From assembly GCA_965203165.1 (NCBI GenBank), contig OZ241849.1, forward strand, positions 1,680,563-1,744,562: 64,000 nucleotides of DNA, read 5' to 3'. The notes under the pieces were generated by a model, which saw only the letters and a list, made by a program, of their open reading frames with translations, was not told where the DNA came from and made no database searches. Of this stretch, positions 20,644 through 62,545 are shown piece after piece. The stretch is from Dehalococcoidia bacterium (lineage in GTDB: Bacteria; Chloroflexota; Dehalococcoidia; Bin125). A program made the position numbers and the translations under genes. The first letter of the stretch is position 1. Each line of letters opens with the position of its first letter.

Positions 20644-20715
20644 GGCGATTTCGCGAGCTCTTGGCCGAGTTCTGTCTCGCCCCTCACTTGGTCTCCCGCC
20701 CAATCAGCGAGGAGG

Positions 20716-22500: not shown

Positions 22501-22506
22501 GGGGCG

Positions 22507-37152: not shown

Positions 37153-37169
37153 CCCGAGGAGGACGAATC

Positions 37170-42771: not shown

Positions 42772-43086
42772 CGCCGCGCCAGTAGCCCGCGCGCCCAACT
42801 CATCGGGCGCGCGGAGAACACCACGAGGCGGGCGGCTCCTCACGGAGCCGCCCGCCTCTGCGTTCAGCGCCTGCGCGCAAGACGTTCAGCGGCCTGCGCG
42901 CGGCAGGGCCATGATCGCAGCGGTGTCGGTCTGTCGTTCCGCTCAACAAGTCCCGATGGAGATCCCTGTGCGCTTTGCGGTTGTGGCATTTCCTGGGATG
43001 TGGAGCGAATTGGGACTGCATCTATGCGCTGCGGGGGTTTGGCCTGTTCACACATACCGCACGCTTCGTGATTCTCCCGCGCCCCG

Positions 43087-43330
43087 CCTCCGTCATACCC
43101 GCGCTTGCCGCGCGCGGATATCTCGCCGCGGTGAGGGCCAAGCAACCGTCCACGCCTCCCACAGCCTCGCGCGTCACCCCCATTGGGTGCCGCCGGACAT
43201 CTGGATTGGGGTGTTGCGCTGCGCGAGAGGGTCTGCGCAGGAACGACCGGAGAGGGTGGCGGAGGCAGGCGCGGGGCTCCGTGCAGAGCTCGGCGAGATA
43301 CCCGCGGCGAGCGCGGGTATGACGGAGTTG
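43087..43330. repeat. MITE-like unit: inverted REP1 copies (43089-43130 and 43293-43328) bracketing about 160 bp
   Basis: ccgtcatacccgcgcttgccgcg ... cgcggcgagcgcgggtatgacgg in inverted orientation. A GTTCACAC flank motif lies at about 43044. Confidence 0.5.
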
Positions 43331-43391
43331 ATTTAGCGCAGGTAGGGCGGAGTTGGAGGGCGGGGGTGGCGGGGTGGTGGTGGTGTGGGCG

Positions 43392-44774
43392 CTAGTAGCG
43401 CTTGTTCCAGGCGGTGGCGCGCTCGGTGAAGATGTTGGGGTTGGCTACCCAGTCGGCGTAGCCGATTTGACGGTTGTTGGTGAGCCAGTTGATGCGGGCG
43501 TCTAGGCAGTTGAGCAGCTGGGCGTCTTCGACGCGGAGCGAGAAGCCGCCGTATTCGACGGCGGGGTCGTAGGCGGTGACGGCGAGCGCGCCGGCGGAGG
43601 CCTGGACGGCGTCGGCGTTGCCCAGTTCGCCGCGGGCGAGGCCGTCGATTTGGCCGTCGAGCACTGCGGCGATGTAGGCCGACTCGTCGTCGCCCATGTA
43701 GATCACCTGCGGCAGGTCGGCATTGGGCGGGACCAAGCGGGTGCGGCCGGCGACGTTTTCGGTTTGCTCGGAGGAGGTGATCGTGAACGCGGCGCTGCCG
43801 TCGGCGACGACTACGCCGTTGGGCGTCTCGATCCGCGTTCCCGCCGCCAGCGCGCCGTCTTCGTCGGCCAGCCCGGCCAGCTGGAGCAGGCGCGCTTCGC
43901 CGGTGGTGCCGGGGACTGCGCCGATGCGGTCGTCGGAGGTGAGGTCGGCGTGGGTGCGGATGCGGTCGGCGTCGGCGGCGCGGACGAGCAGCGTCTGGCG
44001 GAAGGCGATGTGGCCGGAGGTGAAGGCGACGGCGACGCGCCCGTTGTGGTCCATCGTGCGGCTTTCGAGGATCGTGATGCCGCCGCCGACCATGTCGAAT
44101 TCGGGCTTGGTGGGCGAGAGCCAGATGTCGGACCAGACGCCGATCGGGATGCGCTCGAACGAGAGGCCGGTCTGATCCATCGTCTCGATCGCGTTGATCA
44201 GCGCCGCCTCGTAGCCGCGGTGGTCGCGGTAGCCGGACGATTCCGGGTCGCCGTCGGCGCTGTAGCTGACGGGCTCGAAGAAGGCGAAGAAGCCGAGCTT
44301 GAGGCGCTGTTCACCGCCGCAACAGAGCAGCGGCAGCGCAATTCCGCGGCTGTGGAGCCAGGAGGTGAAGCTGCGCAGGGGCGGGATGTAGCGGTCGTCG
44401 GGCAGCAGGCGGGCGTCGCTCCCGTCGACGCGGATGCCCCACTCGAAGCGTCCGTCGGCGATGCGGCGGGCGACGACGCGGGCGGCGCGTCCGTCGGGCA
44501 GCGCGATTTCGGAGCTGCGCAGCCAACCGGTCGCGCCGCGATCCAGCGAGACGAAGCGGCGCTCGGGCAGGATTGTCCGGCCGCCGATCTGGAGGCCGAA
44601 CTCGACGCGGCGGTTCTCCGCGAGGCGGGCGACCACCTGCGCGTAGTCGCCCGTGCAGCCGGCAGGTGGGGCTGGCAAAAAGCCGTTGGCTGCGACTTGC
44701 CCAAAGCCGGCGAGCGCGGCGGCGATGAGCGCGAGCAGGAAGGCGGGGCGGAGCAGGCGGGCGGTGAGCGTCAT
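43392..44774 (-). CDS. Secreted family-3 solute-binding-protein-like protein (SBP_bac_3 domain) with an N-terminal extension
   Basis: Signal peptide and the C-terminal periplasmic binding fold (GFFAFFEPVSY..., IPIGVWSDIWLSPT). Confidence 0.6.
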   Translation of the reverse strand: MTLTARLLRPAFLLALIAAALAGFGQVAANGFLPAPPAGCTGDYAQVVARLAENRRVEFGLQIGGRTILPERRFVSLDRGATGWLRSSEIALPDGRAARVVARRIADGRFEWGIRVDGSDARLLPDDRYIPPLRSFTSWLHSRGIALPLLCCGGEQRLKLGFFAFFEPVSYSADGDPESSGYRDHRGYEAALINAIETMDQTGLSFERIPIGVWSDIWLSPTKPEFDMVGGGITILESRTMDHNGRVAVAFTSGHIAFRQTLLVRAADADRIRTHADLTSDDRIGAVPGTTGEARLLQLAGLADEDGALAAGTRIETPNGVVVADGSAAFTITSSEQTENVAGRTRLVPPNADLPQVIYMGDDESAYIAAVLDGQIDGLARGELGNADAVQASAGALAVTAYDPAVEYGGFSLRVEDAQLLNCLDARINWLTNNRQIGYADWVANPNIFTERATAWNKRY

Positions 44775-44827
44775 TTTGGGAGGGCCAATCTGTGGGGGGT
44801 GTGGTGTTGGGCTAGGGCGTGTTCACG

Positions 44828-45125
44828 AATCCGTCGTTCCTGCCTGCGCGTGGGTTCCTGCCTGCGCAGGAATGACGGAAGGGGGCGCGATGTGGATGAG
44901 CGGGGCGCGGCGCGATTGGTGGGCTGGTTCGCGGTGCGATTGGTGGGCTGGCGCGCGGCGCGATTGGCGGGCTGGCACGCGGTGCGATTGGTGGGCTGGT
45001 TCGCGGCGTTCCACCCCCCACCTAACCTCCCCCCTGGAAGGGGGGAGGGATGAATTGGGGAAGGGGCGAGTATTGGGGTGGGTTCCTGCCTGCGCGTGGG
45101 TTCCTGCCTGCGCAGGAATGACGGA
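44828..45125. repeat. Composite repeat: REP2 doublet direct repeats (44828-44880 and 45079-45125) flanking a 24-bp x4 tandem (gcgattggtgggctggttcgcggt, about 44911-45005) and the GGGGAGGGATGAATTGGGG palindrome motif
   Basis: Seen directly in the sequence. Confidence 0.8.
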
Positions 45126-45157
45126 TTTGCGGGGGCGGCGGGAAGTGTGGACATGTT

Positions 45158-46420
45158 CTAGCCGATCCGGCGGAAGATGAGGCAGGCGTTTTGGCCGCCG
45201 AAGCCGAATGAGTTTTTGAGTGTGACCCGCACATCGGCCTCGCGGGCGGTGTTGGGCACGTAGTCGAGGTCGCAGTCGGGGTCGGCGTGCGCGTAGTTGA
45301 TCGTGGGGTGGATGCGGCCGTCGAGCATGCCTTTGATCGCGGCGATTGATTCGAGTCCGCCCGCGCCGCCGAAGGCGTGGCCGATCATCGACTTGGTTGA
45401 GGAGATGGCGACGCCGGCGGCGGCTTCGCCCAGCGCCTGCTTGATCGCGCGGGTTTCCGAAGCGTCGTTGAGCGGCGTCGAGGTGCCGTGCGCGTTGATG
45501 TGGTCGATCTCCTCCGGCTCGACGCCGGCGTCGTCCATCGCCCAGCGGATGGCGCGGACGGGGCCGGCTCCGTCGGCGTCGGGCATGACGAGGTGGTGGG
45601 CGTCGGCGCTGGAGCCGAAGCCGGCGATCTCGATCTGGAACTCGGCACCGCGGGCGCGGGCGGATTCCTCGCTCTCGAGGATCAACACGCCTGCGCCTTC
45701 GGCGGGGACGAAGCCGTCGCGCTGCGCGTCAAAGGGGCGGCTGGCCTCTTGGGGGTGTTCGTTGTTGGCGGTGAGCGCGCGCATCACGGCGAAGCCGCCC
45801 AGACCGAGCTGGCAGAAGCCGGCCTCGCATCCGCCGGTGATCACGATGTCGGCCTGGCCGCGGCGGATCACGTCGGCGGCTTCGCCGATCGCCTGGGTGC
45901 CGGCGGCGCAGGCGGTGACGACGGTGGTGTTGTAGCCGAGCAGGCCGAACTGCATCGCAATGTTGGCGGCGGCCATGTTGGGCAGCACGCGGGGGATGAA
46001 GAGCGGGTCGAGGCGCATGCCGCCGCGGTCGATCAGCTTGCGGGCGCCGTCCTCCAGCTCGGGGTAGCCGCCGCTGCCGTTGCCCAGCACGACGCCGATT
46101 CGCGCGCGGTCGAGCGCGTCGAGATCCAGCCCGGCGTCGTCCACCGCCTCGCGGGCGGCGGCCACGGCGAGTTGGGAGAAGCGCGCCATGCGCCGGGCCG
46201 ACTTGCGGTCCATGAAGTCCTGCGGATGAAAGTCGCGGATTTCGCCGCCGATGGTGCAGGAGAAGCCCTCGACGTCGAAGAGCGCGATCGGCTCGATGCC
46301 GCTCTCGCCGGCCAGGGCGCGCCGCCAGAATGTCTCGACGCCGTTACCCAGCGGCGAAAGCGCGCCCATGCCGGTGACGACGACGCGGGTGCGATCGGGG
46401 CGCGTGCGATCGTCCCCCAT
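45158..46420 (-). CDS. fabF: 3-oxoacyl-ACP synthase II
   Basis: KAS-II active-site regions (VTACAAG, HGTSTPLND, GHAFGGAGG). Start chosen at MGDDRT. Confidence 0.9.
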   Translation of the reverse strand: MGDDRTRPDRTRVVVTGMGALSPLGNGVETFWRRALAGESGIEPIALFDVEGFSCTIGGEIRDFHPQDFMDRKSARRMARFSQLAVAAAREAVDDAGLDLDALDRARIGVVLGNGSGGYPELEDGARKLIDRGGMRLDPLFIPRVLPNMAAANIAMQFGLLGYNTTVVTACAAGTQAIGEAADVIRRGQADIVITGGCEAGFCQLGLGGFAVMRALTANNEHPQEASRPFDAQRDGFVPAEGAGVLILESEESARARGAEFQIEIAGFGSSADAHHLVMPDADGAGPVRAIRWAMDDAGVEPEEIDHINAHGTSTPLNDASETRAIKQALGEAAAGVAISSTKSMIGHAFGGAGGLESIAAIKGMLDGRIHPTINYAHADPDCDLDYVPNTAREADVRVTLKNSFGFGGQNACLIFRRIG

Positions 46421-46422
46421 GG

Positions 46423-47892: not shown

Positions 47893-47916
47893 TGCGCTTC
47901 GCTTCCTCTGCCTGCG

Positions 47917-48080
47917 CGTCGTCGACTCATCGTACGCGCTGAGTCGGCCCTGCGCAGCCGCGCCGCCACTGAGCACCTCCTCGCTCCACTCGCGGGCTGG
48001 CGCGATGTCCCTCGTGCGAGCATCGGCGCGGCGCGTTTTCCAGCCCCCGATCGGCGAAAACCTGGGCGGATTTGGCGCAC
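47917..48080. repeat. Copy 1 of a roughly 130-bp duplicated leader element (copy 2 at about 49163-49290); here immediately 5' of folC
   Basis: gcgtcgactcatcgtacgcgctgagtcggccctgcgcagccgcg...catcggcgcgg...cccgatcggcgaaaac(c)tgggcgga(t/c)ttgcgcac is shared. Copy 1 carries a 45-nt insertion. Confidence 0.7.
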
Positions 48081-48412
48081 GGAAGCGTGCGCGATGTGCG
48101 CCGGCATCTGAGTTTGGCGACGGGCGGGGCAAGCTCGCTGAGGCACACGTGACGGTGACGAGGGGCAACGCTCGATCGTCGGCTGCGCCGGCGTGGGGCG
48201 CGCTCTCGGCGCGGGAACGTAGAGCGCTAGGCTGCTCGCGGGCGGAACGCTCGGCGCTCAATGGAGTGGCGTGGGTGCTGCTTGGTACGCTGGCGCGGGC
48301 GGCTTATGCGCATAGGGGTGGTGCCGATCGCGACGATTGAAGCGTCAGGGCATCCGCGGAGACCTGCGGATCGCAGAGTGTGCGGCGGCAGCAGCTTGCT
48401 TCCCGCAGAAGC

Positions 48413-49018
48413 TCAGTACGCGCACCCGGCCTCTTTCAACGCGACGCGGGTGGTGGGGCGCAGGTCTTCTACGGCGGCTTCAAATTCGAGAATGGGAGAA
48501 CGGGTGTCTGGTGCTCTGCCGGGATCGTAGTCCCCTTCTAGGAACGTCGCCATCGTCACCATTATGTCCGCCCGGGCGAGGTGAAACTGCATGAGCTCGC
48601 TGGGGACTCTGCGAAGGACCTGGAGGTGCTGGAAATATGTATCGGTGTAGTCGTAGGCGGTTTCGGTGGCGGCGACGCGACCAAACATGTAACACCAAGC
48701 GGCGTACTCGTCGATCGTCATCTCGCGGGTGGGCTGAGGCGCTGGGGTGGTACGCGACGACTGCTGTTGCGCCTGTTCCTGCGTCTGCTCTTGCTGCAGC
48801 GACAGCTGCTGTGCCTGTTCCTGCGCTTGCAGCTCCTGATGCGTCTGCTCCTGCTGCTCGGTGGCGCTCGATGTGCTGGCAGTTGCGGGCACTGGTGTCG
48901 AGTCGTCCTCGTCTCCCCCAGCGATGGCGGCGATGATCACGACGACGATGAAGAATCCGGCGGCGGCAAGCGCGACGCGACGCAAGGTGGTGCGGTTCAT
49001 CTGCTCTCTCCAGCTCAC
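48413..49018 (-). CDS. Hypothetical membrane-anchored protein with a Gln/Glu-rich linker
   Basis: N-terminal TM helix. The low-complexity QEQ region might be spurious, but codon bias is consistent. Confidence 0.45.
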   Translation of the reverse strand: MSWREQMNRTTLRRVALAAAGFFIVVVIIAAIAGGDEDDSTPVPATASTSSATEQQEQTHQELQAQEQAQQLSLQQEQTQEQAQQQSSRTTPAPQPTREMTIDEYAAWCYMFGRVAATETAYDYTDTYFQHLQVLRRVPSELMQFHLARADIMVTMATFLEGDYDPGRAPDTRSPILEFEAAVEDLRPTTRVALKEAGCAY

Positions 49019-49313
49019 TCGGCGGGGTAGATTTGTGACTGGGGGATGTTACGGCGCTGCGTTGATGTTCCTCTGCCGGCGGCCGATGGTCGTTTGTCGT
49101 AGGGCGTAGGCCGCGACGCAACGGGCCGATCGGCCCGTTCAGCGTCGGCTTCCTGCTCGTTCTGCATGGCGTCGACTCATCGTACGCGCTGAGTCGGCCC
49201 TGCGCAGCCGCGCGGCCACCGAGCATCGGCGCGGTGCGTCTCCCATCTCCCGATCGGCGAAAACTGGGCGGACTTGCGCACCAAGCCCCGTCCACGCCTC
49301 CCCCACGCCCCCT

Positions 49314-49628
49314 TCCGTCATTCCTGCGTAGGCAGGAACCCAGGTGATCTCCAGCGCCCGTATGCGCCACGATGCCGCGACGGTCCACCTGAGCCGCTCT
49401 GCGCTGCCGCTGGACATTCAACGCCACGCTGAGCCGCTCCTACTGCGTGGGTTCCTGCCTACGCAGGAATGACGGAAGGGGCGCAGGGGCGCAGGGCGGG
49501 GTTGGGCGCCGGGTGCGGCGAGATGCTCGCGGCGAGCGCGGGTTCCTGCCTGCGCAGGAATGACGAAAGTGGCAGCGGGTTCCTGCCTGCGCAGGAATGA
49601 CGGAAAGGGCGTAGGAGTGACGGAATGT
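49314..49628. repeat. Cluster of four REP2 hairpins (one joined to a REP1-like fragment at about 49517-49567)
   Basis: ttcctgc(g/c)...gcaggaatgacgga repeated at 49314, 49449, 49540 and 49578. Confidence 0.85.
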
Positions 49629-49680
49629 GGGGCGTGTGCCCATCGGCGCTGGCGGGTTACCCTGTGGGCGGGAGTTGGCG

Positions 49681-50643: not shown

Positions 50644-50679
50644 CACACCGCCGCGCGACACCTCCAAGGGAGCCCAAAC

Positions 50680-51708
50680 ATGACCACCGCCGACCTTCAC
50701 GACACCGCGCGGGCGCTCGTCGCGCCCGGCAAGGGCATCCTTGCCGCCGATGAATCGGCGCCCACGATCAAGCGGCGCTTCGACGGAATCGGGGTCGATT
50801 CGACCGAGACCAACCGCCGCGACTGGCGGCAGTTGCTGTTCACCGCCGACGGCATCGGCGACTACATCTCCGGCGTGATTCTGTTCGACGAGACGCTGCG
50901 GCAGCAGGCGTCGGACGGGCGGACGCTGGTCGAGGTGCTCAGTTCGGCGGGCGTGATTCCGGGCATCAAGATCGACAGCGGCGCGAAGGATCTGGCGGGC
51001 GCGCCCGGCGAGAAGGTGACGGAGGGCCTGGACGGCCTGCGCGAGCGGCTCGATGAGTACCGCGGGCTGGGCGCGCGGTTCACCAAGTGGCGCGCGGTGA
51101 TCGCGATCGACGAGGGGCTGCCGAGCGACTACTGCCTCGAGGTCAACGCGCACGCGCTGGCGCGGATGGCGGCGCTCTCGCAGGAGGCGGGGCTGGTGCC
51201 GATCATCGAGCCGGAGGTGCTGATGGACGGGGCGCACGACATCGCGGCCTGCGCCGACGCGACGGAGCGCGCGCTGCGCGCCACGTTCGCGGCCTGCGCG
51301 GCGCAGCGCGTGGACCTGCCGGGCGCGCTGCTCAAGCCCAACATGGTGCTTTCGGGCAAGGACGCCGCCGAGCGCGCGCCGGCCGAGACGGTCGCGGCAG
51401 AGACGCTGCGCGTCTTCCGCAACGCGGTGCCGGCCGCGGTGCCGGGCTGCGTCTTCCTTTCGGGCGGCCAGAGCGACGCGGAGGCGACGGTGAATCTCGA
51501 CGCGATCAACCGGCTCGCGGCGTCGGAGGGCGCGCCGTGGGAGTTGAGTTTCTCCTACGGGCGCGGCCTGCAGGCGACGCCGCTGGGCGTCTGGAGCGGG
51601 CAGCGGGAGAATGTCGCCGCCGCCCAGGCCGCATTCCAGCTCCGCGCCAGGCTCACCGCCGCCGCCCGCCGCGGGGAGTACAGCCCGTCGCTGGAGCAAG
51701 AGGGGTAG
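50680..51708 (+). CDS. fba: Fructose-bisphosphate aldolase class I
   Basis: Class I FBA motifs (GKGILAADES, IKIDSGAKDL, Schiff-base lysine region). Confidence 0.85.
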   Translation: MTTADLHDTARALVAPGKGILAADESAPTIKRRFDGIGVDSTETNRRDWRQLLFTADGIGDYISGVILFDETLRQQASDGRTLVEVLSSAGVIPGIKIDSGAKDLAGAPGEKVTEGLDGLRERLDEYRGLGARFTKWRAVIAIDEGLPSDYCLEVNAHALARMAALSQEAGLVPIIEPEVLMDGAHDIAACADATERALRATFAACAAQRVDLPGALLKPNMVLSGKDAAERAPAETVAAETLRVFRNAVPAAVPGCVFLSGGQSDAEATVNLDAINRLAASEGAPWELSFSYGRGLQATPLGVWSGQRENVAAAQAAFQLRARLTAAARRGEYSPSLEQEG

Positions 51709-53107
51709 GGGGCGTGGTTAAGCGACCTCTGGGGATGGGGAATACCGGGGTAACCGACAGCGCGGTTGAGCGGCTTTGGGTGGTCGCTTCCAGCTCAACA
51801 TCAGACTCGACAATCGCGACATGATCGACCACGACACGATAGGTCAAGCCCGGCTCCAGATTGTCGAACGTGTACGCTGTGGTGCCGTTGTAGACCCTCT
51901 CGTGCCTGATGCCCGAGCGCGTGGGGTGAAACAGCATCAAGCGGTAGTCGTCGTTTGCCGCGTCGGGGTACGGCGCATCCCAACTCACCGTAATGCTGTT
52001 GCTGGTTGTCGTCGTCCGTACATTTTGCGCGCCGCGCGGCGGCGCGGTCCAGCCGGGCGGCGCAGGCAGCGTGCGGACCATGGTTGAGGCCAGCAAAGGT
52101 TCCGGGGACTCGCCGAGTTGTACTCGGACCGTGTACTCGCGGTCTGGCGGAACATTGCGGAAAATGATCGTGGGAGTCCCGTCGCTGTGGTCGTCCGGAT
52201 CATAGATCTCGCCGTCGCTCACTCGTGGGCGAGCGCCAGACAGATCGTCAAGGAGGACGTAGAAGAAGCTCACCGACGGCTGCTCATCCCAGGTCACGGT
52301 CACAGTGTCATGCGTGGCGGTCGCTGATACGCCGGTGGGTGAGGTAAGCGTAGTCGCCGTACGGTCGATCCAGATCAGGGCGTTGGGCGTTTCAGATTCG
52401 ATCCGATCGCGCAGCGATGCGAACTCGAACCGGTACTCAACGCCTTTGCGCAGCCCGACGATGTTGACGTGCATCGCGTGATCGAGGTAGTGGGTATGTT
52501 CGAGCAGCTCATAAGTCCAGGCGGTCGTGCCGGTAGGGCGCCAACGGGCCAGGAAGTGAGAGGTTGCGCCGTTCGGCTTGCTGGTATCAACGGTCCAGCC
52601 GCTAACGATGTCGTTGCGATAGGCGATCAGAGGTATCGCCGGCGGAGCCGGCAGCGCCCGCGCCCTTGCCACATCGAGCGCCGCCTCGCGCCGCACGCCC
52701 CTCGAGTCCGTCACCGTCGCCGTGACCCGCTTGGCGGCCAGCGCCGCATCCTCGTCTGCGGCCTCCGCCTCGCTCAGCGCGCCGCAGTTGATGCGGACGT
52801 TGTCGGCGTCCGCGTTGACGGGGGTTCCTTCAACTTGCAGCTTGTAGGGCGGCTTGCCGACCGCGATCTGCCAGGAGATTTCAGTCAGCGTGCCCGCGGT
52901 GCAGAGCTCGCGCGAGCTTGCCAGCTCGAGCCTGAGGCGCTGGCGCCACTCGATCAGGGCCAGCCAGAGGCGTGGATCGGCTGACCAGCGCTCCACGAGC
53001 GGCGCGTCCGCATCGGGCGGCGCGTCGGCCCGCGCGGGTCCCGCCGCGCCGAGCAACGCCGCGAACAGCCCGATCAGTCCAATCAGCGCCATTGCCGTCA
53101 AGCGCAT
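51653..53107 (-). CDS. Secreted repeat protein: conserved 140-aa N-terminal domain (DPRLWLALIEWRQRLRLEL...CTAGTLTEISWQIA...INCGAL) plus FN3-like modules
   Basis: Signal peptide MRLTAMALIGLIGLFAALLGAAGPARA. Paralog of 53318..55885 and of the 5' partial gene. Confidence 0.65.
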   Translation of the reverse strand: MRLTAMALIGLIGLFAALLGAAGPARADAPPDADAPLVERWSADPRLWLALIEWRQRLRLELASSRELCTAGTLTEISWQIAVGKPPYKLQVEGTPVNADADNVRINCGALSEAEAADEDAALAAKRVTATVTDSRGVRREAALDVARARALPAPPAIPLIAYRNDIVSGWTVDTSKPNGATSHFLARWRPTGTTAWTYELLEHTHYLDHAMHVNIVGLRKGVEYRFEFASLRDRIESETPNALIWIDRTATTLTSPTGVSATATHDTVTVTWDEQPSVSFFYVLLDDLSGARPRVSDGEIYDPDDHSDGTPTIIFRNVPPDREYTVRVQLGESPEPLLASTMVRTLPAPPGWTAPPRGAQNVRTTTTSNSITVSWDAPYPDAANDDYRLMLFHPTRSGIRHERVYNGTTAYTFDNLEPGLTYRVVVDHVAIVESDVELEATTQSRSTALSVTPVFPIPRGRLTTPPTPLAPATGCTPRGGRRR

Positions 53108-53317
53108 TCAGAGACCCCTTCATTCACTGCGATGTTAGCCAGACGCGCGGGCGCGCCGTTTGGTTCCCGCGCGGCGGTCAGCGCGAACAGTGCTGCGATC
53201 CGGATGCGCATCCGAGACCTCCTGCGCTGGTCGTAATGATGAACGGGCGGAGATGAGTGTGCCCGCGCCGCGCGGGTTCGCGGCTTTCGGAGCGCATGGG
53301 CGTACCTGACGGCGCGG

Positions 53318-55885
53318 CTAGCGGCTTTGGGTGGTCGCTTCCAGCTCAACGGCGGACTCGACAATCGCGAGGTGATCGACCACAACTCGGTAGGTCAAGC
53401 CCGGCTCCAGATTGTCGAACGTGTACGATGTGGTGCCGTTGTCGACCCACTCATGCCTGATTCCGGAGCGCGTGGGGTGAAACAGCATCAAGTGGTAGCT
53501 GTCGTCCTCTGCGTCGGGGTACGGCGCTTCCCAACTCACCGTGATGCTGTTGCTGGTCGTCGTCGTCCGCACATTTTGCGCGCCGCGCGGCGGCGCGGTC
53601 CAACCTTGGGGCGGCGATGTGGTGCGTACCGTCGTGGTTGCTTCCAGCGGATCATCTGACTCGCTGAGAGACCACGTGCCCACCCGCACTCGCACCGTGT
53701 ATTCGCGGTCGGAGGGGACGTTGCGAAAGACGACCGAATACGCTTCGCCGTCATGCTCGCGCGGTATGTAGATCTCGGCATCGTCCACGCGCGGGAGCCG
53801 ATCCGACGAGCCCTCGAGGTATACGCGGAAGAAGCTTGCCGACGGCTGTTCGTCCCACGTTACAGTCACTGTGCTGTGTGTGGCCGTTGCCGACAAACCC
53901 GTTGGCTCTGCCAGCGTCCTGGTCGAGCTGCGCACCCAGCGCAAAGCCTCCGGCGTCCTGGCTTCAATGCGATGTCGCATCGTTGCAAATTCGAACTGGT
54001 AGTCGGTACCTTGACGCAGGTCCCAGAGGAGGACAGGCGCTACGCCTAGCGGCGCATGTTTGTGTTCCCACGCTCTGGTGGACCACTCGGTCGACGTCGT
54101 AGGTCGCCAGCGCATGATGAAAAGCGAAGTGGCGCCGTCCGGCTTGGTTTCGTCGCCCAGCAGTCCAGTTGTGATCGCCTCGCCGTAAGCGACTATGCCT
54201 GTGGTTCTCGGCGCAGGCAGCGCATGCGCCCTTGCCACATCGATCGCCGCCTCGCGCCGCACGCCCCTCGAGTCGGTCGCCACCGCCGTGACCCGCTTGG
54301 CGGCCAGCGCCGCATCCTCGTCCGCGGCCTCCGCTTCCGTCAGCGCGCCGCAGTTGATGCGGATGTTGTCGGCGTCTGCGTTGACGGGGGAGCTTGCGAC
54401 TTGCAGATTGTAGGGCGGCTTGCCGCCCGCGATCTGCCAGGAGATTTCCGTCAGCGTGCCTGCGGTGCAGAGTTCGCGGGAGCTTGCCAGCTCGAGTCTC
54501 AGGCGCTGGCGCCACTCGATCAGGGCGAGCCAGAGACGCGGGTCGGCTGGGTAGCCCGGCGAGCTTTGGCCCTGCACGGGCGCTGGTGTAGTGGTGACGG
54601 TTGTCGAAACCTCGACACCGTACAGGTCGAGATGAGCCACGGTGACTGTGTATGTGGTCGCGGGTGTCAGGCCTTCCAGGGTGAACGTCAGTGGTGCGCT
54701 CACCCAGCGGCTGTACGGGCGACGCCAACTCGAATGCTCGACGTAGACGATCCAGCGATCGCGCGTGTTCGGAGTGGGCGCGTCCCAAGTAGCTGTGATC
54801 GTGTCGTGCGTCGCGGTGACGCTGAGGCTCTGCGCGCCGCGCGCTGGCGCCTGCCAAGCGGTTGGCGCCGCAACCGTGGTTGCCCGGATCGTTGTACGGA
54901 GTTGCGCTTCGTCGTCGCCGTGAACTGAAACGTGAATTTTGTACTCCGTCTCCGGCTCGAGATCGATGTGCGTCACCTGGTTCGTCACAACCGCATCACG
55001 GCGCCGCATGATCACTCTCCTGCTGCGTCCAGCCCCATCAGCGCGAATGAGGTCCACGTAGACGTAACTGACCGATGGTTGATCATCCCAGCTCACGGTG
55101 ATCGTGTCGTGCGTACTGGTCGTACGGACGCCCGTTGGCGTGGTCGCGGTCGTCGCTTCAAGGTTCCCGCTCCAGATGAGCGCATCAAGCGTTGACTGCT
55201 CGATCGGATCGCGCAGCGATGCGACTGCGAATACGTAGGAGGATCTTTCGGCGAGACCGCTGAAGGCCGCTATCACGATCTCGAGCTGACCTGTCGAGCC
55301 GATGAGTTTGTATGTCCAGTTCGAATCAGTTGCAGCACGCCAGCGCATCAGCCACCAGCCGCTCCCCGCGACCCAGCTTGTGCTAACCAGGGTCCGCTGA
55401 ACCACTGGAGTGCGCAGATGCGGCGCCGGCAGCGCCCGCGCTCTTGCCACATCGATTGCCGCCTCGCGCCGCACGCCCCTCGAGTCCGTCACCACGGCGC
55501 TGATCCGCTTGGCGGCCAGCGACGCATCCTCGTCCGCCGCCTCCGCCTCGCTCAGCGCGCCGCAGTTGATGCGGATGTTGTCGGCGTCGGCGTTGACGGG
55601 GGTTCCTTCGACTTGCAGCTCGTAGGGCGGCTTGCCGCCCGCGATCTGCCAGGAGATTTCTGTCAGCGTGCCTGCAGTGCAGAGTTCGCGCGAGCTTTCC
55701 AGCTCGAGCCTCAGGCGTTGGCGCCACTCAATCAGGGCGAGCCAGAGGCGCGGATCGGCCGACCAGCGCTCCGCCGCCGGCTCGCCCGCATCCGGCGGCG
55801 CGTCGGCCTGCGCGGGTCCCGCCGCGCCGAGCAGCGCTGCCAGCAGTGCGAGCAGCCCAATCAGCGCCATTGCCGCCACGCGCAT
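53318..55885 (-). CDS. Secreted repeat protein, large paralog. The 140-aa conserved domain occurs twice; FN3-like modules follow
   Basis: Start chosen at MRVAAMALIGLLALLAALLGAAGPAQA (signal peptide). Long stretches are near-identical to 51653..53107 at the DNA level. Confidence 0.65.
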   Translation of the reverse strand: MRVAAMALIGLLALLAALLGAAGPAQADAPPDAGEPAAERWSADPRLWLALIEWRQRLRLELESSRELCTAGTLTEISWQIAGGKPPYELQVEGTPVNADADNIRINCGALSEAEAADEDASLAAKRISAVVTDSRGVRREAAIDVARARALPAPHLRTPVVQRTLVSTSWVAGSGWWLMRWRAATDSNWTYKLIGSTGQLEIVIAAFSGLAERSSYVFAVASLRDPIEQSTLDALIWSGNLEATTATTPTGVRTTSTHDTITVSWDDQPSVSYVYVDLIRADGAGRSRRVIMRRRDAVVTNQVTHIDLEPETEYKIHVSVHGDDEAQLRTTIRATTVAAPTAWQAPARGAQSLSVTATHDTITATWDAPTPNTRDRWIVYVEHSSWRRPYSRWVSAPLTFTLEGLTPATTYTVTVAHLDLYGVEVSTTVTTTPAPVQGQSSPGYPADPRLWLALIEWRQRLRLELASSRELCTAGTLTEISWQIAGGKPPYNLQVASSPVNADADNIRINCGALTEAEAADEDAALAAKRVTAVATDSRGVRREAAIDVARAHALPAPRTTGIVAYGEAITTGLLGDETKPDGATSLFIMRWRPTTSTEWSTRAWEHKHAPLGVAPVLLWDLRQGTDYQFEFATMRHRIEARTPEALRWVRSSTRTLAEPTGLSATATHSTVTVTWDEQPSASFFRVYLEGSSDRLPRVDDAEIYIPREHDGEAYSVVFRNVPSDREYTVRVRVGTWSLSESDDPLEATTTVRTTSPPQGWTAPPRGAQNVRTTTTSNSITVSWEAPYPDAEDDSYHLMLFHPTRSGIRHEWVDNGTTSYTFDNLEPGLTYRVVVDHLAIVESAVELEATTQSR

Positions 55886-55961
55886 TTGCGGCCTCCCATT
55901 CACTGCGATGCTAGCCAGACGATGGGGTGCGCTGCTTGGTTCCCGCGGTGGGGCCAGGGGG

Positions 55962-56230
55962 TGTTCACACTTCTCTAGATCCGTCATCCCGCGGCGAGCG
56001 CGGGTATGCGGGTCAATTTCGCGCGCGGGGTGGGGGAGATGGGAGCGGGGGCTTGGTACGCAGCGCGGCGAGATACCCGCGGCGGAGCGCGGGTATGACG
56101 GTTTTGCTTCGCGCGGGTGTGGCGGAGGTGTTTGCGCGGGTGTGGCGGAGGTGTTTGCGCGGGGGTGGCGGAGGTGTTTGCGCGGGTATGGCGGAGGTGT
56201 TTGCGCGGGGGTTGCGGGGTTGTTGCGTGG
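55962..56230. repeat. Two REP1 hairpins plus a 23-bp x4 tandem (ggtgtggcggaggtgtttgcgcg), preceded by a GTGTTCACAC flank
   Basis: Seen directly in the sequence. Confidence 0.85.
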
Positions 56231-56242
56231 GGCGCGCGCCCG

Positions 56243-57133: not shown

Positions 57134-57174
57134 GGGGCGTGTCTCCGTCGGTTGCGGCTTGCGTGCCGCACAGT

Positions 57175-57855: not shown

Positions 57856-58016
57856 TGCGTTTTCCTGCTCTCTCGGCGTCCGTCTGGGGCGGCGGCGGGC
57901 CGGCCGCCCTACTTCGTGTCAGATCAACACTAACTCGCTCGGCGCAGATGTCAAGCGGCGCACTATCCTGTGGGCGTCGTGGTTGGTTGAGCAGTTGACG
58001 GAGAGGAGCGCGCGCG

Positions 58017-58775
58017 ATGTGCCACCGATACGAGGCTCTGCCGGCGGTGCCGCCGATTGCCGGGGCGGCGGTCGATCTGGAGGATCTGACGCTGCGCGCG
58101 TCGGACGGGGTGGAGTTCGCCGCGTTTCACGCGCGACCGGAGCAGTCGGGCGGGCCGGCGATCGTGGTGCTGCCGGATGTGCGCGGGTTGTTCCGCTTCT
58201 ACGAGGAGCTGGCGATTCGCTTCGCGGAGGCGGGCGTGGAGGCGGTCGCGATCGACTACTTCGGGCGCACGGCCGGCGTGGGCAAGCGCGACGCGGAGTT
58301 TGACTTCTGGCCGCATGTGCGAGGCACGACGCCGGAGGGGATCGCGGCGGATGTGGCGGCGGCGGCGGCGGTGCTGCGGGCCGACGACGCGGAGCGGGCG
58401 CTGTTCACGGTGGGTTTCTGCTTCGGCGGGAGCAACTCGTGGCTGCAAGGGGCGGCGGGGCACGGACTGAGCGGGGCGATCGGCTTCTACGGGCACCCGA
58501 CGCGGGAGGGGCTGAATGGGGGTTCCTCGCCGCTGGGGCAAGTCGAGCAGGTCGCCTGCCCGCTGCTCGGTCTGATGGGCGGCGCGGACGAGGGCATCCC
58601 GCGGGCGGAGGTGGACAAGTTCGCGGCGGCGCTGGACGCGCGAGGCGTGGCGAACGAGTTCATCACCTACGAGGGCGCGCCGCATTCGTTCTTCGACCGC
58701 ACGTATGACGAGCATCAGGACGCCTGCGCGGACGCCTGGCGGCGGGTGCAGGAGTTCATCAGCGCGAACAGCTAG
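58017..58775 (+). CDS. Dienelactone hydrolase family protein
   Basis: DLH family alpha/beta hydrolase (nucleophile elbow GFCFGG). Confidence 0.8.
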   Translation: MCHRYEALPAVPPIAGAAVDLEDLTLRASDGVEFAAFHARPEQSGGPAIVVLPDVRGLFRFYEELAIRFAEAGVEAVAIDYFGRTAGVGKRDAEFDFWPHVRGTTPEGIAADVAAAAAVLRADDAERALFTVGFCFGGSNSWLQGAAGHGLSGAIGFYGHPTREGLNGGSSPLGQVEQVACPLLGLMGGADEGIPRAEVDKFAAALDARGVANEFITYEGAPHSFFDRTYDEHQDACADAWRRVQEFISANS

Positions 58776-58811
58776 ACAGCTGGCGAGCACACACAGTAAG
58801 GAGCGGCGGGA

Positions 58812-59198
58812 ATGCGAGTGACGCAGGCAGCGGAGGGGAACACGAACCAGGCGAACGCGCCGATTTTCACGGGCGGCGATGTCTGGGTGCGCGCGCTGGC
58901 GGGGGCGATCGGCGGTCAGCAGGGCGGCGACGACGCGGATTTCAACCTGGCGGTCGTGCAGTTCGGCGCGGGCGCGCGGACCAAGCGCCACACGCACTCG
59001 TCGGAGCAGATGCTGTACGTGGTCGCGGGGATCGGCAAGGTGGGCAACGCGGAGGGGGAGCGCACGATCAGCGTGGGCGATTTCGTGATCATCCCGGCGG
59101 GCGAGGATCACTGGCACGGGGCAGGCGACACGGGCTCGCCAATGTCGCATCTGGCGATCACGCGGCGGGACAGCGTGACGGAGGTGACGGAGGACTGA
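58812..59198 (+). CDS. Cupin domain protein
   Basis: Cupin metal-binding His/Glu motifs (HTHSSEQ...HWHG). Confidence 0.7.
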   Translation: MRVTQAAEGNTNQANAPIFTGGDVWVRALAGAIGGQQGGDDADFNLAVVQFGAGARTKRHTHSSEQMLYVVAGIGKVGNAEGERTISVGDFVIIPAGEDHWHGAGDTGSPMSHLAITRRDSVTEVTED

Positions 59199-59212
59199 GG
59201 CGGGAGGGCGTT

Positions 59213-59727
59213 CAGTCGTCTTCGCGCTCGCGTTTGCGGCGTAGTTCTTCTTCCGCGCGGCACCTCGCCCCGCCCCAGATGTCCGGCGGCGCTTGGATGC
59301 CGCCTTCGCGGGGGTGGGGAGCGCGGGAGACGGGGACGGGGTTTGGTGCTCAGCGCGGCGAGATACCCGCGGCAAGCGCGGGTATGACGGAGTGGGGGGT
59401 GCGGGGGTATGACGGAGTGGCGAGCGCGGAGGTGTCGGAGTGGGGAGCGCGGGAGACGGGGACGGGGTTTGGTGCTCAGCGCGGCGAGATACCCGCGGCA
59501 AGCGCGGGTATGACGGAGTGGGGGTGCGGGGGTATGACGGAGTGGCGAGCGCGGAGGTGTCGGAGTGGGGAGCGCGGGCATGACGGAGTGGGAGCGCGGG
59601 GGTGTCGGAGTGGGGAGCGCGGGTATGACGGAGTGGGGGTGCGGGGGGTGTCGGGAGAGGGAAGCGTGAACAGGCTTTAGTCGTCTTCGCGCTCGCGTTC
59701 GCGGCGCAGCTCTTCTTCCACGCGGCG
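59213..59727. repeat. REP1-rich insert (two roughly 120-bp higher-order units) bracketed by 48-bp direct repeats. The left repeat is a duplicated 3' end (last 14 codons plus stop) of the minus-strand gene 59677..60117
   Basis: Left tcagtcgtcttcgcgctcgcgtttgcggcgtagttcttcttccgcgcgg vs right ttagtcgtcttcgcgctcgcgttcgcggcgcagctcttcttccacgcgg. Confidence 0.8.
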
Positions 59728-60117
59728 GCGTTCTTCAGCGCGGATTTGTTCGCGCAGTCGTCGCTCGTTCTCGGCGTCGTCGCTTTGCAGGCCCTCGTCC
59801 CGCCAGTCGCGCCCTCTCGCCAGCCGTTCTTTCTCGATTCGACGTTCGGTGCTCTCCGGGGCGATCAACGCGAACGCCAGACCGATCGGGCCGAGTACGA
59901 AACCGAGAAAGAAGCCTCCACAGCTGGAGCGACCTTTACTGCTCATCATCATGCCCCCGGCCACGCCGCAGGCGAGCCAGATGATCAGGGCGATGACGAC
60001 TATTTCCACTGCTGCATTCCTTCGCTTGGCGACTGTGAATTGCCGTAACCGCGGCTTGGGGTTCTCAGCCTCAGTAGCTGCTCCGCCGCGCCACCCGAAC
60101 GACATCCCAGGCCGCAA
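59677..60117 (-). CDS. Hypothetical small membrane protein with a charged C-terminal tail (...RREREREDD)
   Basis: Two predicted TM helices and a duplicated 3' end nearby. The start is uncertain. Confidence 0.4.
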   Translation of the reverse strand: MRPGMSFGWRGGAATEAENPKPRLRQFTVAKRRNAAVEIVVIALIIWLACGVAGGMMMSSKGRSSCGGFFLGFVLGPIGLAFALIAPESTERRIEKERLARGRDWRDEGLQSDDAENERRLREQIRAEERRRVEEELRREREREDD

Positions 60118-60562
60118 TGGCCACGATCGCCGCCACGCTGGCGATGCTCAGCGCGAGCAGCACGGCTGAGCCGGTATCGCCCACATCGCCGAGTTGGCGC
60201 AGGGCGAGCAGCACGCCCGCGGTGCTCGCGGCGAGAGCGATCGCCAGCCAGTGATGCACCCACTCGGCGGCGAAATTCACCGCAATCGCCACGACTACCG
60301 CGGCGTTGACCACGATCAGCAGGTGGACATCTTCAAGTCGGTTCCAGCCGCCGCGCTGGGTGCCGGTCAGCTCGTCGGCGGCCTCGATTAGCGCGTCGCC
60401 GCGCAGGCTGAGGAAGAGCACCACAATCGCCGCGCCAACCGCCCCGCCGACCAGCGGGCGAAAGAGGCGCGGGCCGATGCTCTCGAACGAGCGCGCCGGC
60501 GCGGCGCCCAGCTTGCGGCGCGCGTGCTCGCGTCCTGCCGGTTCGGCTGCTGAGTCGGCCAT
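60071..60562 (-). CDS. Hypothetical polytopic membrane protein
   Basis: Hydrophobic ORF with GC3 bias. Overlaps the downstream ORF by 47 nt. Confidence 0.35.
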   Translation of the reverse strand: MADSAAEPAGREHARRKLGAAPARSFESIGPRLFRPLVGGAVGAAIVVLFLSLRGDALIEAADELTGTQRGGWNRLEDVHLLIVVNAAVVVAIAVNFAAEWVHHWLAIALAASTAGVLLALRQLGDVGDTGSAVLLALSIASVAAIVAIAAWDVVRVARRSSY

Positions 60563-60596
60563 CGGACTCCTCCACTGCGCGGCTCCCGCGCGCAGT

Positions 60597-61376
60597 TCAA
60601 ATGTTAGACCGCGTTTGGCCGCCGTCGACGTTGAGGCACGCCCCTGTCACCCACGCCGCGCGCGGCGAGGCAAGGAACGCGACGACGTCGGCCACCTCTT
60701 CGGGACGCCCGAAGCGGCCAAACGCGATGCCGTCGAGCACGCTGCTGCGGATGCCTTCGGGGTCGGCGTCGTAGCGCTCCTGCCAGCGGCTGCCCGGCCA
60801 GGCGATCGAGCCCGGCGCGACGGCGTTGGCGCGGATGTTGCGCGGCGCGAGTTCGAGCGCGAGCGACTTGGCGTGACTGTGCACCGCCGCCTTCATCGCG
60901 TTGTACTGCGCCGAACCGCCAGCCTCGCGCCCGAAGATCGAGCCGATGTGGACGATCGCGCTGCTCTCCGCTCCCTCGCCCGAGGCGGCCGCTTCCAGAT
61001 GCGGCAGCGCCGCGCGGGTGGTGCGCACCGCCGCCATCAGATTCAGCTCGAACATCTCCTGCCAAACCTCATCGCTCTCGCCGCGAATCGACACGCCCAT
61101 GTTGTTGACCAGGATGTCGAGGCGTCCGAACACCTCAACGGCGCTCGCGACGACCCGATCCGGCGCGCCCGCCTCGCCCAGGTCGGCAGCGACGGTGTGG
61201 ACATTGCCGGGTCCTTCGGCGGCGATGCGTTGAGCGGCGGCGGCGAGCGCGTCGGGGCGGCGGGCGCAGATCGCGACATCCGCCCCCTCAGCCGCCAGCG
61301 CCCGCGCGCACCAGAGGCCAATCCCCTCCGATGCGCCCGTAATCAGCGCCGCTTTGCCGGTCAGCCCCAAGTCCAT
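60597..61376 (-). CDS. SDR-family oxidoreductase
   Basis: TGASEGIG Rossmann motif and a YxxxK catalytic region. Start chosen at MDLGLTGK. Confidence 0.8.
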   Translation of the reverse strand: MDLGLTGKAALITGASEGIGLWCARALAAEGADVAICARRPDALAAAAQRIAAEGPGNVHTVAADLGEAGAPDRVVASAVEVFGRLDILVNNMGVSIRGESDEVWQEMFELNLMAAVRTTRAALPHLEAAASGEGAESSAIVHIGSIFGREAGGSAQYNAMKAAVHSHAKSLALELAPRNIRANAVAPGSIAWPGSRWQERYDADPEGIRSSVLDGIAFGRFGRPEEVADVVAFLASPRAAWVTGACLNVDGGQTRSNI

Positions 61377-61584
61377 CAGCATCTCCAGTGCGTCGCAGTG
61401 TACGACGCGGCGGGCGCGGAGCGGGTTTGACATCGGCTGCCGACTGCACACCTCTGGGCGCACGCGGATCGACCGCCGGAGGCAACCGTGCCCGACGCAA
61501 CCGGCGTCACCACGCCCATCCCCGCTCTGACCGACGCGAAGTGCGATCTGATCGCGATGCTCGCCACCGACTAGAGCCCGTTCA

Positions 61585-62545
61585 CACTTCCGTCATTCCT
61601 GCCTGTGCGGGAATGACGGAAGTGCGGTGCAGGTGTGGCGGGGGCAGTCGCGGGGCTCCGTGCTGTGCGCGGCGAGATACCCGCGGCGAGCGCGGGTATG
61701 ACGGTCTTCTCTCGCGCGGGTGTGGCGGAGCTGTCTTGCGTGGGTACGACGGTCTTCTCTCGCGCGGGTGTGGCGGTCTTCTCTTGCGCGGGTGTGGCGG
61801 AGCTGTCTTGCGTGGGGTGGCGGTGGTGGGGCGCAGGTGTGGCGGGGGCAGTCGCGGGGCTCCGTGCTGTGCGCGGCGAGATACCCGCGGCGAGCGCGGG
61901 TATGACGATTTTCTCTCGCGCGGGTATGACGGTCTTCTCTCGCGCGGGTACGACGGTCTTCTCTCGCGCGGGTGTGGCGGAGCTGTCTTGCGTGGGGTGG
62001 CGGTGGTAGCGCGCAGGTGTGGCGGTGGCAGTCGCGGGGCTCCGTGCTGTGCGCGGCGAGATACCCGCGGCGAGCGCGGGTATGACGGTCTTCTCTCGCG
62101 CGGGTGTGACGATTTTCTCTCGCGCGGGTGTGGCGGTCTTCTCGCGCGCGGGTATGACGGTCTTCTCTCGCGCGGGTGTGGCGGAGCTGTCTTGCGTGGG
62201 GTGGTGGAGCTGTCTCGCGCGGGTGTGGCGGTGGCAGTCGCGGGGCTCTCCGTGCTGTGCGCGGCGAGATACCCGCGGCGAGCGCGGGTATGACGGTCTT
62301 CTCTCGCGCGGGTGTGACGGTCTTCTCTTGCGCGGGTGTGGCGGAGCTGTCTTGCGTGGGGTGGCGGTGGTGGGGCGCAGGTGTGGCGGAGCTGTCTTGC
62401 GTGGGTGTGGCGGAGCTGTCTTGCGTGGGTGTGGCAGAGCTGTCTTGCGTGGGTGTGGCAGAGCTGTCTCGCGCGGGTGTGGCGGTGGTGTTTTGCGCGG
62501 GTGTGGCGGTGGTGTTTTGCGTGGGGTGGCTGGCGCATGCGGGAT
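61585..62545. repeat. Higher-order tandem array of about 960 bp: one REP2 hairpin, then four roughly 200-bp units, each holding a REP1 hairpin (61674, 61877, 62057, 62266) followed by 24-bp tandem repeats (tcttctctcgcgcgggtgtggcgg / agctgtcttgcgtgggtgtggcgg)
   Basis: Seen directly in the sequence. Fills the divergent intergenic region between the SDR gene and the penicillin acylase gene. Confidence 0.85.

Follow-up and report, generated by a model that had tools for sequence, protein, structure and literature searches.

CGTC-tagged hairpin repeats and their variable arrays in a Dehalococcoidia bacterium of the Chloroflexota

The stretch of DNA analysed here, hereafter the window, comprises 64,000 nucleotides of a Dehalococcoidia bacterium (positions 1,680,563 to 1,744,562 of contig OZ241849.1, GenBank assembly GCA_965203165.1), with a G+C content of ~70% throughout, and it carries two families of short repeats. 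Judged by their sequence, both families are CGTC-tagged repetitive extragenic palindromic (REP) elements, i.e., short non-coding hairpin-forming DNA repeats of an already known superfamily. They can form hairpins, are spread extragenically in many copies, pair into dimers, are amplified locally in tandem, and are polymorphic between strains in both presence and copy number. The original prediction of REP-like hairpin families that build higher-order arrays was correct, as the copies are intergenic and form inverted pairs and tandem arrays; it recognised neither the published CGTC-tagged superfamily nor that the flanking motif GTTCACAC is part of an outer repeat. Taken together, we consider it probable that these CGTC REPs are non-autonomous mobile elements whose movement depends on a trans-acting enzyme of the REP-associated tyrosine transposase (RAYT) type, with arrays that grow in place.

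Anatomy and kinship of the two hairpin families

Both families are asymmetric: CGTC forms an unpaired tag, the stem spans 8-9 positions and starts A-T/T-A, the loop measures 4-5 nt, and a short tail follows. Read tag first, a family 1 unit consists of C-CGTC, the hairpin ATACCCGCG-CTYGC-CGCGGGTAT and CTCGCCG, and a family 2 unit of C-CGTC, the hairpin ATTCCTGC-GYAG-GCAGGAAC and CCA. The family 1 stem (ATACCCGCG/CGCGGGTAT) has 9 bp and encloses CTTGC or CTCGC (6 nt in one copy); the family 2 stem (ATTCCTGC/GCAGGAAC) has 8 positions, the first an A/C mismatch that leaves 7 paired, and encloses GTAG or GCAG. In family 1, CCGTCAT lies at one side only and the opposite side is ATCTCGCCG, and the ordinary family 2 unit reads GGGTTCCTGC-CTRC-GCAGGAATGACGG. 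The symmetric palindrome first proposed as consensus does not describe such units: CCGTCAT and ATGACGG occur within one hairpin only in three double-headed copies (44831-44878, 55981-56012 and 61590-61619), which look like collapsed dimers. Of the CCGTCAT...ATGACGG termini that the families were said to share, the CCGTCAT tag is common to both, whereas the pair of termini is confined to these three copies. With this common tag and with stems that differ by paired changes, the two families are related.

The motifs are far more frequent in the window than expected by chance. Allowing at most one mismatch, the family 1 14-mer CCGTCATACCCGCG has 28 matches (0.01 expected) and the family 2 13-mer CCGTCATTCCTGC has 10 (0.08 expected), and a perfect hairpin of at least 7 bp immediately follows CGTC 11 times, vs 0.7 in shuffles. 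CGTC stands immediately 5' of the stem in 21/21 intact window hairpins; decayed copies show CGCC, TGTC or CGTT. Folded as single-stranded DNA, the units reach -11.1 kcal/mol (z = -3.6) in family 1 and -7.2 kcal/mol (z = -4.0) in family 2.

The assignment to CGTC REPs is made because this anatomy fits, feature by feature, the CGTC REPs of Di Nocera et al. 2013 (PMC3733652). There, a CGTC REP has an unpaired CGTC (or TGTC/CCTC) tag, an 8-9 bp stem starting AT, 4-5 nt in the loop and a tail of 3 nt that is CCA in most cases; such REPs mostly form tags-outward dimers, with no adjacent transposase. The present elements agree in the unpaired CGTC tag at one end, the 8-9-position stem opening A-T/T-A, the intergenic location without a transposase alongside, and the predominance of tags-outward dimers with spacers of 20-100 bp. 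In that account, CGTC-1 resembles family 2 (4-nt loop, CCA tail) and CGTC-3 resembles family 1 (5-nt loop). They differ in host phylum, which is Chloroflexota here; the 2013 survey lists CGTC repeats in Proteobacteria, Chlorobi, Bacteroidetes, Spirochaetes and Thermotogae, and for Chloroflexi only GTAG-23. They also differ in that clusters are common here and rare among the CGTC REPs of that account, and in their tag-side half-unit satellites, for which we met no description in the parts of it consulted. [quoted passage not shown] To judge by the names of its metagenome-assembled genomes (RHO1, IRC3, bin125 and SB0664), the clade may itself be of sponge-symbiont origin. We regard as new the host phylum, the tag-side half-unit satellites, the frequent clustering, and an outer CTAG/GTTCACA repeat that abuts stop codons.

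Kinship with proteobacterial repeats extends to the sequence itself. Arrays of Neisseria intergenic mosaic elements (NIMEs) alternate dRS3 with other 50-150-bp repeat units, whereas the arrays here reiterate half-REPs. The dRS3 repeat has been equated with CGTC-1 by Di Nocera, De Gregorio and Rocco (2013, BMC Genomics 14:522), and Bertels and colleagues report the dRS3 21-mer ATTCCCGCGCAGGCGGGAATC as the master sequence of the Neisseria REPIN population (bioRxiv 10.1101/2021.07.10.451892). Family 2 equals ATTCCCGCGCAGGCGGGAATC at 18/21 positions, two of the three differences being a compensatory pair, and the exact 21-mer, with CCGTC head and CCA tail, is present in related metagenome-assembled genomes (MAGs; L001 and L026, where L001-L113 label the related stretches compared with the window). 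Most Neisseria copies likewise lie in large intergenic clusters interleaved with other repeats. In the alphaproteobacterium Rhodopseudomonas, copies in L017, L051 and L058 have the head and 9-bp stem exactly as in family 1, and the L017 copy has a CCA tail, as in published CGTC-3.

The family 1 hairpin was sought in genome contigs, with one genome per species, and the matches listed amount to 100 stretches. It occurs in at least 100 stretches; among the matches listed are 23 Dehalococcoidia/Chloroflexota and 2 Rhodopseudomonas assemblies, and Joint Genome Institute (JGI) metagenomes add 45 stretches of 60-67% G+C. Family 1 is thus present in no fewer than 23 Chloroflexota assemblies and in 45 stretches from metagenomes, and the elements are not restricted to the window. 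Within 864 kb (the window plus 100 related loci) there are 315 hairpins, whose main stem types are ATACCCGC (168), ATTCCCGC (49), ATTGCCGC (44) and ATTCCTGC (38), and each of the four retains its own complementary arm. Tails are mostly CCA in family 2, and CTC in family 1 (145/168) and in the ATTGCCGC type (44/44). Neighbouring hairpins in these 864 kb form 68 tags-outward dimers (median gap 42), 18 tags-inward pairs and 44 tandem pairs, so the usual form in related Dehalococcoidia is the tags-outward inverted dimer, which is REPIN-like; that of L010 can fold into one long hairpin (-36.3 kcal/mol, z = -5.1). Two 20-kb stretches from conspecific strains, fetched via a gene rather than the repeat, hold 15 and 9 hairpins, which by extrapolation would give on the order of a thousand copies per genome.

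Arrays in the window and their variation between strains

All window copies are intergenic, between genes with a strong signal of G+C at third codon positions (GC3). The six composites located by the original prediction were each confirmed by reading the regions and by Tandem Repeats Finder, but the range proposed for them (43040-62545) was too narrow, as further composites lie at 6063-6517 (family 1) and 20571-20818 (family 2). Tandem Repeats Finder gives periods of 23, 24, 46/48, 92, 126 and ~180/204 bp in the window. The 23/24-bp satellites already noted are thereby borne out, but their half-unit nature had been missed: each joins the tag and the arm nearest to it (plus-strand sequence GCGCGGGTATGACGG) to 8-9 nt that are particular to the array. 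Satellites invariably lie on the tag side of a full hairpin, with tags often decayed to GTGGCGG, and a half-site lies 23-24 nt from the hairpin on that side in 10/13 window copies and in 32/155 copies of related loci. Growth thus takes the form of tandem amplification, on the tag side, of 20-25-bp half-units made of a tag and proximal arm, and whole units of 92-204 bp are amplified as well. Replication slippage and unequal recombination may drive it, aided by competition of several proximal arms for a single distal arm.

Strain comparison relied on contigs that encode an identical cupin (58812-59198) or small membrane protein (59677-60009); they represent conspecific populations, 96-97% identical to the window. 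Array lengths differ between them at three places, and from the comparison of array E, site D and array C the arrays are real and unstable, with at least one recent gain or loss. Array E (59262-59675) is absent from L104 and L105, where a 14-bp spacer takes its place, and from the more distant L097; it has one hairpin with ~3, 6 and 11 satellites in L108, L110 and L109, respectively, and two 126-bp super-units in the window. Because it is present or absent among ~96% identical strains, its gain or precise loss must be recent. In L102 and L103, a family 2 array and tRNA-Lys come after the cupin gene, and it is at this site of array E that synteny with the window breaks off. Site D (55961-56231) shows four states in four strains, namely five 23-bp satellites in the window, six in L102, a family 2 dimer with other modules in L103, and one double-headed palindrome in L104. 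Array C has 4 hairpins in the window vs 6 in L102. In L097, an orthologous family 1 REP lies downstream of the same gene as the window REP at 56.1 kb.

Array E is bracketed by two direct copies, 90% identical, of 51 nt from the 3' end of the neighbouring gene, and strains with the empty site have a single copy. The distal copy (59211-59261), derived from the 3' end of this minus-strand gene, retains the ancestral TGA, and the proximal copy (59676-59726) is the functional gene end and stops at TAA directly against AGCCTGTTCACG. A second insertion with long flanking duplications, at 47912-49264, is absent from L102: the 5' region of a Mur-ligase gene is duplicated (47912-48061 and 49162-49264; 89-92% identity) around a 1250-bp segment, itself not in L102, with a 201-aa open reading frame (ORF; 48413-49018, minus strand) that has no significant Pfam match. 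At 30.5 kb, the ~1-kb difference between L098 and the window comprises a gene as well as a single half-site and hence does not represent a clean REP insertion.

In the low-coordinate part of the window, five 92-bp super-units on the plus strand (6063-6517; 4.9 copies at 96% match by Tandem Repeats Finder) each consist of a half-site (CCGTCATACCCGCGC plus 8 nt) and a full family 1 REP, CCGTC-ATACCCGCG-CTTGC-CGCGGGTAT-CTCGCCG. Directly 5' of this array lies a 10-bp tandem repeat, GCCGAACACA x5.8 (5876-5933); similar repeats, CCGAACAGAT, are found inside a 455-bp element of L085 (3885-4339) that has the same outer inverted repeats. At 20571-20642 (plus strand), two degenerate 21-nt half-sites precede a full family 2 REP at 20617, CCGTC-ATTCCTGC-GTAG-GCAGGAAC, which faces a degenerate family 1-like partner, GCGTGGGTACGACGG (20790-20818, minus strand), with tags outward and a spacer of ~160 nt. 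The REP at 20617 is adjoined by a gene for a fused N6/N4 DNA methylase and Mrr-type endonuclease (20920-22506, minus strand); a gene with the same domains lies at a different locus in L103 (11818-13164) and so may be mobile. The strand of the REP tags changes along the window: it is plus below 21 kb and mostly minus above 43 kb.

Composite A opens with an outer repeat remnant, GGCCTGTTCACAC (43041-43053, plus strand), and is a tags-outward dimer of a degenerate family 1 REP with spoiled hairpin (43090-43128, plus strand; fold z = -0.08) and an intact family 1 REP (43292-43325, minus strand), ~165 nt apart. Composite B begins with the outer repeat CTAGGGCGTGTTCACG (44812-44827, plus strand) and a double-headed family 2 palindrome, CCGTCGT...ATGACGG, with an internal 18-bp duplication (44831-44878); its interior is a 24-bp tandem repeat x4.3, CGCGGCGCGATTGGTGGGCTGGCT (44906-45008), bearing no relation to REP arms, and its right edge is a family 2 REP (45078-45124, minus strand) that carries the same 18-bp partial duplication. 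A third repeat module with a C9/G9 hairpin, CCACCCCCCACCTAACCTCCCCCCTGGAAGGGGGGAGGGATGAAT, accompanies REP composites in the window (45012-45056 and 20727-20760; fold z only -1.3), and is also found at ~10455-10490 of L102/L103, at ~7340-7385 of L103, and in L092, L083, L003 and L070. Array C contains a family 2 tags-outward dimer (49315-49475; REPs at 49315-49340 on the plus and 49450-49475 on the minus strand, spacer 109 nt), followed on the minus strand (49539-49623) by tandem family 2 REPs at 49541-49566 and 49578-49603 and a degenerate half-site at 49609-49623. The dimers 43090/43325 and 49315/49475 are the REPIN-like inverted pairs of the window.

Array D starts with GTTCACAC (55963-55970, plus strand) and a double-headed family 1 variant, CCGTCAT-CCCGCG-GCGAG-CGCGGG-TATGCGG (55981-56012), probably a collapsed dimer; on the minus strand there follow a full family 1 REP with the 6-nt loop (56067-56101) and five 23-bp satellites, each a tag plus tag-proximal arm, whose tag has decayed to GTGGCGG (56108-56231). 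In array E (59311-59655, minus strand), the family 1 REPs of the two super-units lie at 59357-59390 and 59483-59516, and 22-25-bp satellites of tag plus arm follow each of them; the array's outer repeat, AGCCTGTTCACGC on the minus strand (59664-59676), directly adjoins the TAA that ends the gene at 59677. The left edge of array F, TAG-AGCCC-GTTCACAC (61571-61587, plus strand), supplies with its TAG the stop codon of the upstream ORF, and next comes a double-headed family 2 palindrome with an 18-bp stem (61590-61619; DNA fold -21 kcal/mol, z = -7.7). The four super-units expected in this ~960-bp array are present at 61622-62413 on the minus strand, ~180-204 bp each, with family 1 REPs at 61671-61704, 61875-61908, 62055-62088 and 62263-62296 accompanied by 24-bp satellites, and a terminal run of decayed 24-bp satellites extends over 62414-62530 (minus strand).

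The outer repeat and the gene context

In relatives of lower G+C, the complete element is an imperfect ~175-bp palindrome ending in CTAG-GNCCTGTTCACA (L010, L044, L068 and L033), with the layout CTAG-GNCCTGTTCACA-(25 nt)-C-CGTC-hairpin-CTCGCCG-(~30 nt)-CGGCGAG-hairpin-GACG-G-(25 nt)-TGTGAACAGGNC-CTAG. The GTTCACAC flank seen in the window belongs to this outer inverted repeat, which the relatives have in full; units in the window lineage, at 70% G+C, are partly decayed. A left flank had been thought to recur at five places: the exact 10-mer GTGTTCACAC occurs once, at 55961, but GTTCAC[A/G] is found at all five, and GTTCAC stands at one edge in five window composites. The tag lies at +32 relative to GTTCAC in most relatives and at +11 in the sub-lineage of the window. 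Across the 864 kb, GTTCAC lies within 60 nt of the tag in 12/315 hairpins vs 2.0 expected, so the outer repeat truly accompanies hairpins, but only a minority of them. In about a dozen cases, a long ORF with coding GC3 ends in frame at a TAG or TAA that lies 8 nt upstream of GTTCAC. TAG-N5-GTTCACA also occurs at gene ends with no REP nearby (e.g., L031 at 6106, L043 at 5175, L054 at ~4826, L085 at 3885/4339), where it could represent either a 3'-end motif in its own right or a lone end of the palindromic unit.

The hairpins lie downstream of genes or between convergent genes, and the neighbouring window genes are ordinary (KAS, Mur ligase, FBPase, aldolase, enoyl-CoA hydratase, cupin, SDR, penicillin amidase). 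ORFs crossing the arrays lack coding GC3 (0.65-0.75 vs ~0.91 in real genes). Coding repeats are excluded, as G+C at the three codon positions (GC1/2/3) is flat over the arrays; a CRISPR array is excluded as well, since an array's spacers are repeats in their turn and the 50 ORFs scanned with Pfam include no cas family. Rfam at gathering thresholds finds two tRNAs only in the window, tRNA-Gln and tRNA-Glu, and the hairpins of the six composites lack the T-run of intrinsic terminators. ORF 53318-55987 takes as its first ATG the CAT of a CCGTCAT tag (55985-55987), and at 1-204 of L102 a called "gene" of 293 aa spans a family 2 array; in both cases ORF calling was misled by the arrays. ORF 61388-61573, which ends at an outer-repeat TAG, is shorter than its L097 orthologue (7560-8000), with a ~300-bp internal gap and an earlier stop, and the array F element seems to supply the stop codon of this truncated gene. 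Elsewhere, paralogues with fn3 and Pur_ac_phosph_N domains (3-860, 51653-53107, 53318-55885, and L103 405-6259) have ~540-bp segments in common, and the first 5.8 kb of the window is inverted in L103 beside such a gene, so a rearrangement separates these strains.

Proposed mobilisation and alternative explanations

As non-autonomous DNA, the elements would depend for movement on a trans-acting enzyme whose gene lies elsewhere in the genome. Analogy points to a RAYT-type HUH/Y1 tyrosine transposase, present in single copy, as the likeliest candidate; it would recognise the hairpin plus tag on single-stranded DNA, in which form an inverted dimer could fold into one long hairpin. In support of a RAYT, the dRS3-type REPIN population of Neisseria decays where Group 2 RAYT genes are frameshifted (bioRxiv 10.1101/2021.07.10.451892). 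The REPIN-RAYT systems of Pseudomonas and Enterobacteria are alike in their inverted hairpin pairs foldable into one, hundreds of extragenic copies and strain-level variation, and the bacterial interspersed mosaic elements (BIMEs) of E. coli in their tandem higher-order arrays; they are unlike in the tag, which is GTAG there and CGTC here, GTAG occurring here only as a family 2 loop variant. The insertion sequences (IS) of the IS200/IS605 family and their palindrome-associated derivatives are alike in having a subterminal hairpin at a fixed short distance from a terminal tetranucleotide, the distances compared being those of IS608; here, CTAG lies ~20 or 40 nt from the stem foot. IS200/IS605 elements insert 3' of a specific short target, which would explain the position of the units directly against TAG stop codons. 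A Group 2 RAYT occurs in Neisseria, a REP-flanked RAYT gene in the REPIN-RAYT systems and the transposase TnpA in IS200/IS605, whereas none of these was found in the window or in ~1.2 Mb of related DNA.

That the window encodes no transposase, as first stated, agrees with our searches. No transposase family was found by Pfam among 50 GC3-supported or longest window ORFs, a scan that left out 3208-4625, 12104-13246, 15808-16984 and 37152-38159. Comparing E. coli RayT with the window and 100 loci by tblastn gave chance matches only (best E = 0.49), the pattern HUH...Y-x-x-NP had 0 matches in six frames, and a profile built from 118 diverse RAYTs found nothing in the 45 metagenome loci. ORF clustering across related loci, which looked for a recurrent protein adjacent to the repeats, returned only metabolic paralogues (CoA-transferases, luciferase-like monooxygenases, short-chain dehydrogenases, enoyl-CoA hydratases and ABC transporters).

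Several points weigh against CGTC REPs moved by a RAYT-type enzyme. The RAYT profile has no match in the six frames of the window, and its best match in related DNA, a weak one to an ORF of L030 (E = 0.003), was rejected as lacking the HUH motif. Mobilisation in trans is proposed rather than demonstrated, since neither a RAYT nor another transposase was found in the window or in the ~1.2 Mb, which covers only a few percent of each genome and so makes for a weak test. The evidence for mobility is entirely comparative, no copy having been seen to move. Array E, the one insertion whose empty site is known, has the 51-nt target duplication at its flanks; single-strand Y1 transposition would not yield such a duplication, and it likewise misfits the single-strand peel-and-paste of IS200/IS605. 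The family 1 tail is CTC(GCCG) and not CCA, and in family 2 an A/C mismatch takes the first position of the stem, both unlike the CGTC REPs of the 2013 account. In no species that they examined did Di Nocera et al. (2013, PMC3733652) find a transposase gene with CGTC repeats at its flanks.

These points leave room for other explanations. The copies could be relics that spread in the past and that nothing mobilises now, their variation being due to slippage, unequal crossing-over, gene conversion and deletion, which we think rather unlikely. It would account for the decay of many window copies (tags ATGACGG turned into GTGGCGG, the spoiled hairpin at 43090), for strain differences that are mostly in copy number, and for the lack of a RAYT in 1.2 Mb; moreover, each array has its own satellite spacer, which argues for local amplification, and N. 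gonorrhoeae sets a precedent of decay after RAYT loss (bioRxiv 10.1101/2021.07.10.451892). However, the presence or absence of array E among ~96% identical strains means a recent gain or precise loss, site D is occupied by family 1 or by family 2 depending on the strain, perfect hairpins still number eleven in the window, and the sampled DNA is but a few percent of each genome. It is also conceivable, though quite unlikely in our estimate, that CGTC REPs are moved by a nicking-joining enzyme other than the classical REP-flanked RAYT, with a specificity conserved across phyla; its footprints could be a head and stem identical in Dehalococcoidia, Rhodopseudomonas and Neisseria, ends that abut (C)TAG stops, the tag-side satellites and the 51-nt duplication. 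A MITE derived from a DDE insertion sequence (IS5/IS1031-like) would instead have GGNCTGTTCACA inverted repeats and a (C)TAG/TAA target duplication, with the CGTC hairpins as mere cargo and a parent insertion sequence carrying GGCCTGTTCACA ends. The ~175-bp palindromes with CTAG-GNCCTGTTCACA at both ends, the 455-bp L085 element with the same ends and different content, the fixed GTTCAC-to-tag spacing (+32 or +11), the 12 close GTTCAC occurrences where 2.0 are expected and the five window composites edged by GTTCAC would suit such an origin. Yet we judge it distinctly improbable: with the outer repeat near 12/315 hairpins only, most copies cannot move so; the flanking tetranucleotides behave as an inverted, not a direct repeat (TTAG left and CTAA right in L069); no DDE transposase appears among recurrent ORFs or in the window, and no parent insertion sequence was seen there; and the likeness of the outer repeat to IS5/Harbinger ends is presumed.

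Selection by the host would make the hairpins functional sites, i.e., stabilisers or terminators at mRNA 3' ends or binding sites of a nucleoid or topology protein. Their placement downstream of genes or between convergent genes, the orthologous family 1 REP kept behind the same gene in another species (L097 vs the window at 56.1 kb), the identity of head and stem across phyla and the outer CTAG that often provides a true stop codon are in line with this. It is nevertheless very unlikely in our view, since a single site can vary among conspecific strains in presence, number and even family, the T-run of intrinsic terminators is missing, and decayed half-unit arrays have no obvious function; in Di Nocera et al. 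(PMC3733652), a 50-fold copy-number range between species is held to argue against a general function. Assembly artefacts, i.e., collapsed or duplicated repeats, have next to no probability. Short-read scaffolds of the same population do break in or beside the arrays (L106, L107 and L111-L113), but units within each array differ by point changes, the family occurs in at least 23 species-level assemblies, and independent assemblies have arrays at the same sites with other lengths (L102 and L103, on contigs >3.4 Mb, and scaffolds L108-L110), so that the copies are not assembly duplications.

The host range of CGTC-tagged REPs would extend to Chloroflexota, and the near or complete identity with alpha- and betaproteobacterial copies sharpens the question of what recognises and moves them. 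If an enzyme other than a RAYT were responsible, the many complete long-read MAGs of this clade would be a good place to find it and to settle the question left by Di Nocera in 2013. The elements may also affect neighbouring mRNAs at their 3' ends. The arrays break short-read assemblies and seed spurious ORF calls, and some coincide with synteny breaks, as in L102 and L103 at the array E site; because they vary between conspecific strains, they may serve as strain markers for these uncultured bacteria.

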